Below are positions 19,462-20,868 of a DNA stretch of 64,000 nucleotides, piece by piece. Position 1 is the first letter of the stretch. Each line of letters opens with the position of its first letter. Source of the DNA: Octopus vulgaris (Eukaryota); assembly GCA_951406725.2 (NCBI GenBank), contig OX597823.1, positions 19,096,001 to 19,160,000 of the forward strand, read 5' to 3'. Made by a program: the position numbers and the translations under genes. A model generated the notes under the pieces. It had not been told where the DNA came from and searched no databases. It was given only the letters and a program-made list of their open reading frames with translations.

Positions 19462-19662
19462 TCTTATACTTGTTTCAGTCATTTGACTGCGGCCATGCTG
19501 GAGCACCGCCTTTAATCGAGCAAATCGACCCCGGGACTTTTTCTTTTGTAAGCCCAATACTTATTCTATCGGTCTCTTTTTGCCGAACCGCTAAGTAACG
19601 GGGTCATAAACACCAGCATTGGTTGTCAAGCAATGCTAGGGGGACAAATACAAACACACACA

Positions 19663-19702
<40 letters not shown>

Positions 19703-19867
19703 TACGACGAGCTTCTTTCAGTTTCCATCTACCAAATCCACTCACAAGGCTTTGGTCGGCCCGAGGCTATAGTAGAAGACACTTGCCCAAGGTGCCACGC
19801 AGTGAGCTGAACCCAGAACCACGTGGTTGGTAAACAAGCTACTTACCACACAGCCACTCCTGCGCCT
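19462..19867 (-). mobile_element. SINE family A, full length
   Basis: Reverse complement of family A with internal (CA)/(TA) tract, ending cagccactcctgcgcc. Confidence 0.9.
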
Positions 19868-20164
19868 ACTAATTTTCTCTATATTTCCTGCTACCTGTTG
19901 GCTTAATCTCAGGTCATGTGTAATAAAAACCTTTCATCAGAGTATTCCATCCATGACTTTCCCCCCTCTGCTTAGAGCAGCTATTCCTAATGTTTTTGCA
20001 CTCGCGACCCCTTACCCAAAAAGTTATTCCCATGGAAATCCATGGGGTTATTGTTTCTGTTATTGTAAATAACGAGCAGTAAATGAATTATGTTTCATTG
20101 AACCACAGCAAATTAGCACATTATTTACATTCGATGGATATTTGTCCTCATCTTGTTTGTTTGT

Positions 20165-20210
20165 AAAACAATATTTCAGCTGATATACCCTCCAGCCTTC
20201 TTCAGGTGTC
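20165..20210 (-). ncRNA. Degenerate minimal type I hammerhead ribozyme
   Basis: Minus strand: gacac CTGAAGA aggctg gagggtatat cagct GAAA tatt gtttt. Stem II is intact; stem III and the cleavage site are mutated. Confidence 0.55.
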
Positions 20211-20522
20211 ATGGGGAAATTTTGAACCTGGGTTCTCATTCCTATGGTATTTTTCGATATTATTATTATTATTATTGTTCAAGTCACTGCTTGGAATCGA
20301 ACTCGAAATCTTGTGGTTAGTAGCCCTCGCTCTTAACCACTACGCCAAAGCTTTGTGAGTGGATCTGGTAGACGGAAACTGAAAGAAGCATGTATGTGTG
20401 TGTATGTCTGTCTGTCCCCTACTACGAGTTCGATTCCAAGCAGTGACCTGAACAATAATAATAATAATCACAACATTGAAAAATACCTTAGGAATGAGAA
20501 CCCAGGTTCGAAATTTCCCCAA

Positions 20523-20562
20523 GACACCCGAAGAAGGCTGGAAACGTATCAGCCGAAATGTT
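20523..20562 (+). ncRNA. Degenerate minimal type I hammerhead ribozyme
   Basis: gacac CCGAAGA aggctg gaaacgtat cagcc GAAA tgtt. U4 is changed to C and there is a short deletion after GAAA relative to the other arm. Confidence 0.45.
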
Positions 20563-20868
20563 AACAACAAACAAGATGAGAACAAATATCCGTCAAATGT
20601 AAATAATGTACATAATTCCTCATCTCTTAAATATAGAACTGTAACAGCAAATTAGCTTGCTTCATATTTCTAAAACTACTAATACTGTTCACCTCTCTTG
20701 AAATTGTCCCATATTTATTAACTTCCTAGGTTTTCAAATCTGTGAAATATTGTTTTATGACAGGTTATTCTTCTGTAAGTCAAGAATACTGGCAGGTACA
20801 CACACACACACACACACACACACATGGTTGAAAGCCATAAAACAATCATCACCCACAATGATAATTTT

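Follow-up and report, generated by a model that had tools for sequence, protein, structure and literature searches.

A Poseidon-type Penelope-like element of Octopus vulgaris with a tRNA-derived segment at the apparent start site of its pLTR

The window analyzed here, a stretch of 64,000 nucleotides of Octopus vulgaris DNA, contains an insertion that is a truncated, partly inverted pLTR copy of a decayed autonomous Poseidon-type Penelope-like element (PLE); on its identity as a PLE pLTR alone we have next to no doubt. The unusual part of this pLTR is a tRNA-derived segment with an A box and a B box in the place where a PLE promoter sits, and the start points of copies are concentrated at this segment well beyond what truncation at random would produce. 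We consider it probable (roughly 0.6) that the repeat carried an internal Pol III promoter and that the element's own reverse transcriptase (RT) spread the solo repeats, a chain in which we infer the polymerase, the transcripts, and the cleavage from sequence. The original prediction had described the insertion as a candidate tRNA-derived SINE that carries a hammerhead ribozyme and is mobilized by PLE machinery. Instead of a new SINE class, we find the pLTR of a Poseidon-type PLE, and its novelty lies in the tRNA-derived segment at the apparent start site.

RESULTS

Layout of the insertion

The insertion is bracketed by an exact 13-bp direct repeat and consists of two pLTR arms in opposite orientation that are 85% alike (Table 1). 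The A box is confined to the inverted arm, and the direct arm begins at the B box and carries the tail. The target-site duplication (TSD) and the lack of poly(A) in the window had both been seen correctly in the original prediction, which went on to read the insertion as a single unit of head, (AAT)n run, hammerhead, and tail. All of these parts are present, but the unit so described is a composite of the two arms. The prediction made no mention of the foreign repeat between the arms. This spacer would be accounted for by a template switch onto the RNA or DNA of another repeat. Its repeat family is abundant, being found in the window at 19500-19870, the stretch that includes the match at 19692-19755, as well as in the spacer itself, and also in many other places; the neighboring copy is 84% alike and is not nearer to the spacer than other copies are.

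Table 1. Features of the insertion, in positions of the window
Feature	Position	Strand	Basis or remark
Left target-site duplication, 13 bp	20105..20117		Exact direct repeat
Inverted pLTR arm lacking the tail; begins with the A box, at +8 of the tRNA-like segment, and extends up to the base preceding the tail	20118..20347	-	84% to family majority
Minimal type I hammerhead of the inverted arm; core intact, one stem I mismatch	20165..20210	-	
(AAT)n run; length highly variable among copies, other repeats often land there	20256..20276	-	
B box of the tRNA-derived segment, inverted arm	20293..20304	-	Sequence; T-loop columns
A box of the tRNA-derived segment	20337..20347	-	Sequence; matches invariant D-arm columns of genome tRNAs
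Spacer, 77-nt fragment of a different abundant repeat family; 3-nt overlap at the inverted-arm junction	20348..20424	+	
Direct pLTR arm with tail, 5'-truncated, from +50 of the tRNA-like segment; B box at 20426-20437	20425..20643	+	85% to majority
Start of the PLE ORF, spanning ATG, hammerhead, and tail; 50 codons in this copy as opposed to 52 in the majority sequence	20494..20643	+	Open frame in window; runs on into the RT-endonuclease ORF in other loci; N terminus similar in homolog P0007
Minimal hammerhead of the direct arm; core mutated, cleavage site deleted	20523..20562	+	
PLE tail, 34 nt, coding; stretch separating two putative RT start sites	20610..20643	+	PMC11167929
Right target-site duplication, 13 bp	20644..20656		Exact direct repeat

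Copies, ends, and duplications in the genome

In the same genome, a 19-mer of the head had 2690 exact matches and the last 20 nt had 3868, while reversed controls gave 0. Among 30 loci selected on the head, body sequence lay within 350 nt in 24 (one of them with merely 17 nt of body), lay farther away in 2, and was missing from 4, so that the linkage of head and body expected by the original prediction held in 26 of 30. The 3' ends of the family form two clusters 34 nt apart. At tail-selected loci, the tail start (-3 to +1) accounted for 38 of 59 ends, the tail end for 16, and other positions for 5; at head-selected loci, the numbers for the tail start and the tail end were 14 and 3 of 17. That the inverted copy lacks exactly the last 34 nt is true of the window, but across copies the end point shifts by a few bases around the tail start.

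Of 23 loci that have an inverted arm lacking the tail, 11 showed a TSD of 10 to 16 nt, compared with 0.11 in shuffled pairings. Inverted arms were also seen in other copies among 90 tail-selected loci, in which copies were single or in inverted pairs and the head-to-tail hammerhead arrays typical of retrozymes did not occur. The family lacks both poly(A) and the kind of simple-repeat 3' end that a LINE partner would supply; it has a tail of 30 to 40 nt at one end and an inverted 5' arm, as PLEs do. The proposed involvement of PLE machinery is upheld.

The (AAT)n run of the pLTR is often expanded and hosts other repeats (L003, L008, L080, L083, L125, L137, and L141), and for this reason the head can resemble a free-standing short SINE. 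At six variable sites, the same variants were present in similar proportions in 117 short and 35 long alignments, and no variant or lineage restricted to short copies was found at those sites in these alignments. Since short and long copies have variants in common, no separate SINE lineage is seen; variants shared at six sites would neither show nor exclude SINE-like amplification from short master copies.

The autonomous parent element

In some copies, the sequence upstream of the head belongs to a reading frame that has PLE motifs. A search with the upstream region gave 30 long loci, most of which, among the matches listed, pass directly from the end of the ORF into the head. In 35 distinct alignments, the match extends from within the ORF, 60 nt or more upstream, across the head, and at 15 of 30 loci chosen on the 5' part of the ORF and read by eye, the tail continues in frame into the ORF. 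These findings contradict the view of the unit as a noncoding parasite of a PLE. An autonomous PLE with RT and GIY-YIG domains that shares the 3' end does exist, as had been anticipated, but the whole unit, including the head, is its pLTR and not a unit with a borrowed 3' end.

Near full-length copies were present in 5 of 20 fetched regions (L182, L183, L193, L194, and L195). L190 has the arrangement ORF end, pLTR, ORF start, and a pLTR that arises from a partial tandem and overlaps the ORF start was found in L182, L190, L193, and L195. The majority sequence, computed by a script, has a single ORF of 835 amino acids with an RT (YVDD at 536) plus a GIY-YIG endonuclease at the C terminus (motifs of this type at 727-742); its homologs carry PF00078 and PLE-type domains. 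In the parent element, the stop codon is followed after 29 nt by the tRNA-like segment and then by (AAT)n, the ATG (+137), the hammerhead core (+171), the tail end (+292), and the remaining ORF, and in the majority sequence the hammerhead and the tail fall within the first 52 codons. Long copies are a median of 92% identical to the majority sequence (62 alignments) and the sampled natural copies are broken, with a longest frame of 300 amino acids in 30 loci; on both counts the family looks decayed.

The closest homologs, P0002 to P0008, share 53 to 70% identity with the ORF, and the ORF is 57% identical to P0007 over its length, including the codons that overlap the hammerhead. An 836-amino-acid protein of Anolis carolinensis, P0054, which we take to be that of PAc, is 37% identical over 796 amino acids, with a bit score of 486 as opposed to 158 for a Neptune-like fragment in L037. 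The octopus endonuclease has two Cys residues between its motifs, and the linker CX2-5CxxC is absent from residues 690 to 760. Penelope/Poseidon elements have CCHH cysteines between GIY and YIG and no CX2-5CxxC linker preceding the endonuclease (PMC8557442). By its endonuclease motifs and bit scores, the element is of Penelope/Poseidon type.

A young, abundant Neptune-like PLE of 781 amino acids with many intact frames (L037, L042, and many other loci), found in the GIY-YIG search, was considered as the partner and rejected, as it has no significant 3' sequence in common with the family and has its own hammerhead, with a U3-A8 core variant. By eye, CCAAT- and CRE-like boxes recur in its pLTR, which also has a TATA box. 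No relatives were found among viral contigs. Animal-type PLE sequences occur in contigs of bacterial genome assemblies (L370 to L377), which are probably host contamination.

The tRNA-derived segment

Aligned to tRNA-Arg(TCG) of the same genome, the segment scored 64, compared with a maximum of 51 in 1000 shuffles; this comparison covered few isotypes (Arg, Ala, Thr, Cys, Lys, and variants), among which Arg(TCG) was best. A model built from 14 genome tRNAs matched L067 with an E value of 4.6e-6 and the left arm of the window with an E value of 0.03. The A and B boxes fit the invariant columns of tRNAs, and the stems are decayed, with a broken acceptor stem. ARAGORN made no call in the window, nor on the majority head at a threshold of 80 to 90%. 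Judged by score and model, the segment between the ORF stop and start is tRNA-derived, as the original prediction had proposed for its head. A tRNA-derived head with A and B boxes is what a SINE has; a SINE is also a noncoding unit distinct from its partner, and here the head lies 29 nt past the stop of the supposed partner and the 3' half is coding. A cluster of several tRNA-Cys genes and variants was seen within 3 kb in L206.

Where copies start

Tailed arms that cross the AAT run numbered 33, drawn from 90 tail-selected loci, the other 57 being shorter or ending at the masked AAT run. Of these arms, 25 start at -20 to +18 of the segment, 2 at +32 and +43, and 6 farther upstream. Breakpoints at +114 to +117 reflect the masked run, where the alignment stops, and were excluded from this pile-up count. 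With a stricter alignment and both arms (n = 74), 48 starts fell at -10 to +19, 1 at -11 to -40, 12 farther upstream, and 13 at +20 to +49. Genome-wide, exact CpG-free 20-mers gave 5148 matches inside the segment, 850 at -30 to -11, and 794 at -150 to -131. The exact-match rates of these 20-mers in sampled copies (23/94, 19/47, and 23/45, respectively) indicate that the step is not an effect of mutability and is about tenfold once corrected, the rate-corrected numbers of arms being, roughly, 21,000 inside the segment, 2,100 just upstream, and 1,550 another 120 nt upstream. Taken together, the pile-up of starts and the 20-mer step point to an RNA 5' end a few bases ahead of the segment. A short palindrome with a stem of just 4 bp lies at -7 to +5; it smears breakpoints by several nucleotides and could favor inversions there.

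The majority sequence, 2943 nt long, contains no TTTT in the sense strand and 31 in the antisense strand, a contrast that alone means little because the sense strand is A-rich. For the ORF, 2.9 TTTT would be expected from synonymous shuffles (P = 0.027) or 4.3 from base shuffles (P = 0.010); the test uses the majority sequence, and natural copies have 0.47 TTTT per kb. In 39 other PLE frames of at least 300 amino acids, 185 were observed and 176 expected, with 3 frames having none, and all 17 other PLE ORFs of at least 550 amino acids contain between 2 and 18. We regard the outcome of this test as modest.

The hammerhead

The hammerhead core quoted in the original prediction is that of a minimal hammerhead, but its letters come from both arms. 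In the left arm, CUGAAGA and the palindromic helix III are kept and stem I has one mismatch; in the right arm, the core is disrupted to CCGAAGA and the cleavage site is gone. For the family as a whole the expectation of an intact core was borne out: the majority sequence would form a minimal type I hammerhead, with core, stem II, palindromic helix III, and stem I, and among 145 distinct hammerhead segments from 120 head- or tail-selected loci, 42 keep the core and cleavage site and 39 of them both stems as well. Rfam gave neither a hammerhead nor a tRNA match in the window or in 15 copies. Helix III is a loopless palindrome, the minimal form thought to act as a dimer (PMC4209133).

The original prediction had assigned self-cleavage a role in mobilization. 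No copy ends at the cleavage site were noted among the tabulated breakpoints and ends, and hammerhead mutants of the Anolis element PAc still insert in vitro (PMC11167929); with copy starts and ends far from the cleavage site, such a role is unsupported. A 3-nt deletion that removes the cleavage site and keeps the frame is present in 18 short and 4 long copies (L002, L010, L124, and others). Its presence in both classes of copy hints that copies without a working ribozyme may still spread, although a short direct repeat could instead make the deletion recur.

DISCUSSION

In the reading that we favor, Pol III would start about 2 to 7 nt ahead of the tRNA-like segment and about 10 to 15 nt ahead of the A box, and a start 10 to 15 nt before the A box is the usual geometry of tRNA-type Pol III promoters. 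From a 3' or solo pLTR, the RNA would run through the 290-nt repeat and into flanking DNA until it met a T run, Pol III terminating at runs of T4. The RT would prime at a nick made by the GIY-YIG endonuclease and begin copying at two internal positions of the RNA, 34 nt from each other; the tailed arm would come from one of them and the inverted arm without tail from the other, and the TSD would be 10 to 16 bp. This would resemble PAc, whose tail is defined by the two internal positions at which RT begins (PMC11167929). With an internal RT start, the RNA would need neither a defined 3' end nor poly(A). The hammerhead would ride along as the start of the ORF, cleave solely as a dimer or with the help of protein, and probably be dispensable for insertion. 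By this route, the element's own RT would have copied a short Pol III RNA into a rough 20,000 SINE-like solo pLTR arms, and in supposing that a short RNA was copied in a SINE-like fashion, the original prediction was probably right.

The same PLE pLTR could also have been transcribed by Pol II from a start at this position, with the tRNA-like segment as a captured remnant and the short copies as dead-end products of transcripts from the 3' pLTR. We hold this to be possible but do not favor it. About 30 nt ahead of the start cluster, the stop codon of the ORF is overlapped by a TATA-like stretch, the variants are common to short and long copies, and a capped coding RNA is easier to translate; an internal, LINE-like promoter is known for Penelope of Drosophila (PMC2377424). 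However, both boxes have been retained despite the decay of the stems, and the absence of TTTT from the sense strand sets this element apart from all 17 of the other long PLE ORFs. The start cluster also lies 10 to 15 nt before an intact A box, which is tRNA-type geometry. That the RNA 5' end was made by processing or by RT arrest, through an RNase P-like cut of read-through RNA or a fold-back of cDNA at the palindrome, seems unlikely to us. The segment is tRNA-derived and many junctions are inversions at the palindrome, as such an origin would have it, but the acceptor stem is broken, the palindromic stem is merely 4 bp, and starts cluster even where no inverted arm was detected (L244, L246, and L261, for example). 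Moreover, the cluster of 48 includes 19 starts upstream of +1, in sequence that RNase P would remove, some of which may be palindrome overlap.

An independent tRNA-headed SINE family that acquired a PLE 3' end and was mobilized by hammerhead self-cleavage would fit with short copies being about tenfold commoner than ORF-bearing ones, and the schistosome repeat Sm-alpha is a precedent for the union of tRNA and hammerhead (PMC6765202). It is, however, largely refuted and in our view very improbable: the head is contiguous with the end of the ORF of an autonomous element, the hammerhead and tail are coding, the 117 short and 35 long alignments contain no short-only variants, and copy ends at the cleavage site were not noted.

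The Pol III promoter that we favor for the solo repeats could have had a wider role, in which Pol III, acting from the tRNA-derived promoter of the upstream pLTR, produced the entire 2.9-kb RT-endonuclease RNA. We put this forward as a tentative idea that we are more inclined to doubt than to adopt. The ORF would then have been purged of T4 terminators, the uncapped RNA would be translated from the ATG after the (AAT)n run, and the same promoter in the downstream pLTR would be a built-in SINE. One copy, L181, has its start at the segment and extends into the ORF, which is the shape expected of a Pol III coding transcript, although a single copy proves little. A weak lead to a second case is L291, an intact, perfect 2791-nt tandem on a metagenome contig that is a Poseidon-type PLE unrelated to the octopus element (38% protein identity). 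Between stop and hammerhead (L291:2756-3030), it has an A/B-box-like pair and then an AAT-like run, and it has two T4 runs per period and no T5. Such a pair was found in this 1 of 45 ORF-end regions from metagenome contigs and in 0 of 6 further regions, and we estimate the chance of one pair among that many regions at 10 to 20%; the segment of L291 is not significantly tRNA-like (P = 0.116) and had no match to the tRNA model. If Pol III did also make the coding RNA of the octopus element, this would be a rare natural Pol III-made mRNA.

Similar to PAc of A. carolinensis, the octopus element has one ORF with RT followed by a C-terminal GIY-YIG endonuclease, a pLTR that overlaps the ORF start, a minimal hammerhead at that start, a tail of 30 to 40 nt, and an inverted 5' arm (PMC11167929). 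The hammerhead, the tail, and the inversion, which had struck the original prediction most, are therefore ordinary features of PLEs, as is the missing poly(A). Unlike PAc, the octopus pLTR has a tRNA-derived A/B-box segment between stop and start at which copies pile up, its sense strand is without TTTT, and its ATG lies 34 nt before the hammerhead core and not inside it. Animal retrozymes have been proposed to be nonautonomous PLE derivatives (PMC7761336; bioRxiv 10.64898/2026.07.22.740005), and the octopus copies are like these non-LTR retrozymes and MRC1 of Chlamydomonas in being short units, derived from a hammerhead or a pLTR, that are thought to employ the enzymes of PLEs (PMC7761336; bioRxiv 10.64898/2026.07.22.740005; PMC8557442). 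Retrozymes, however, are described as tandem arrays that give circular RNA, whereas the octopus copies are dispersed and identical in kind to the pLTR of their parent. No tRNA-type promoter is mentioned for retrozymes in the sections consulted, and the main text of bioRxiv 10.64898/2026.07.22.740005 refers to neither tRNA nor Pol III.

With tRNA-derived SINEs, the octopus unit has in common a head with A and B boxes and decayed stems and copies that are short, abundant, and flanked by TSDs; it differs from them in having neither a poly(A) or repeat tail nor a LINE partner and in having a head that belongs to an autonomous element. Octopus has tRNA-derived SINEs (SINE2) of its own, namely, OK, OR1, and OR2. 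A precedent for a retroelement RNA other than an ordinary capped Pol II mRNA is R2, which is co-transcribed from rDNA and translated uncapped, and a precedent for a piece of a Pol III gene in a terminal repeat is the TRIM element Cassandra, with 5S in its LTR. The octopus element is a PLE and thereby unlike both R2, with its rDNA co-transcription, and Cassandra, which is noncoding and of LTR type. R2 elements also carry HDV-like ribozymes (PMC6765202). Promoters have been characterized in very few PLEs (PMC2377424, PMC8557442), and a repeat annotation of O. vulgaris lists Penelope and SINE families, its main text being silent on hammerheads and pLTRs (PMC13282606). In the literature searched, no paper described a PLE whose pLTR has a promoter derived from a tRNA; the family may already be recorded outside this search, in Repbase, Dfam, or the supplementary data of PMC13282606. 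Automatic annotation would label its arms, of which there are roughly 20,000, as "tRNA SINE."

A parallel to the combination of tRNA and hammerhead comes from schistosomes, although the original prediction was not aware of such a SINE class as a well-described one: tRNA-derived, Pol III hammerhead SINE-like elements have been described there (PMC2770079, PMC6765202). Like the octopus unit, Sm-alpha and Sj-alpha are tRNA related, contain a hammerhead, and have a very high copy number, and they are reported to be transcribed by Pol III (PMC2770079, PMC6765202). They are described as noncoding, often tandem, and cut to monomers by their ribozyme, and the descriptions considered name no parent ORF for them (PMC2770079, PMC6765202), whereas the octopus unit is the pLTR of a coding element and is dispersed, with a PLE tail, inversion, and TSD. 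A pLTR that unites a tRNA-type promoter with RT start sites would be a ready-made SINE-like unit, by way of which an autonomous element could give rise to a SINE-like family with no chimera step, and this suggests a possible origin of Sm-alpha-type repeats in which tRNA and hammerhead are combined.
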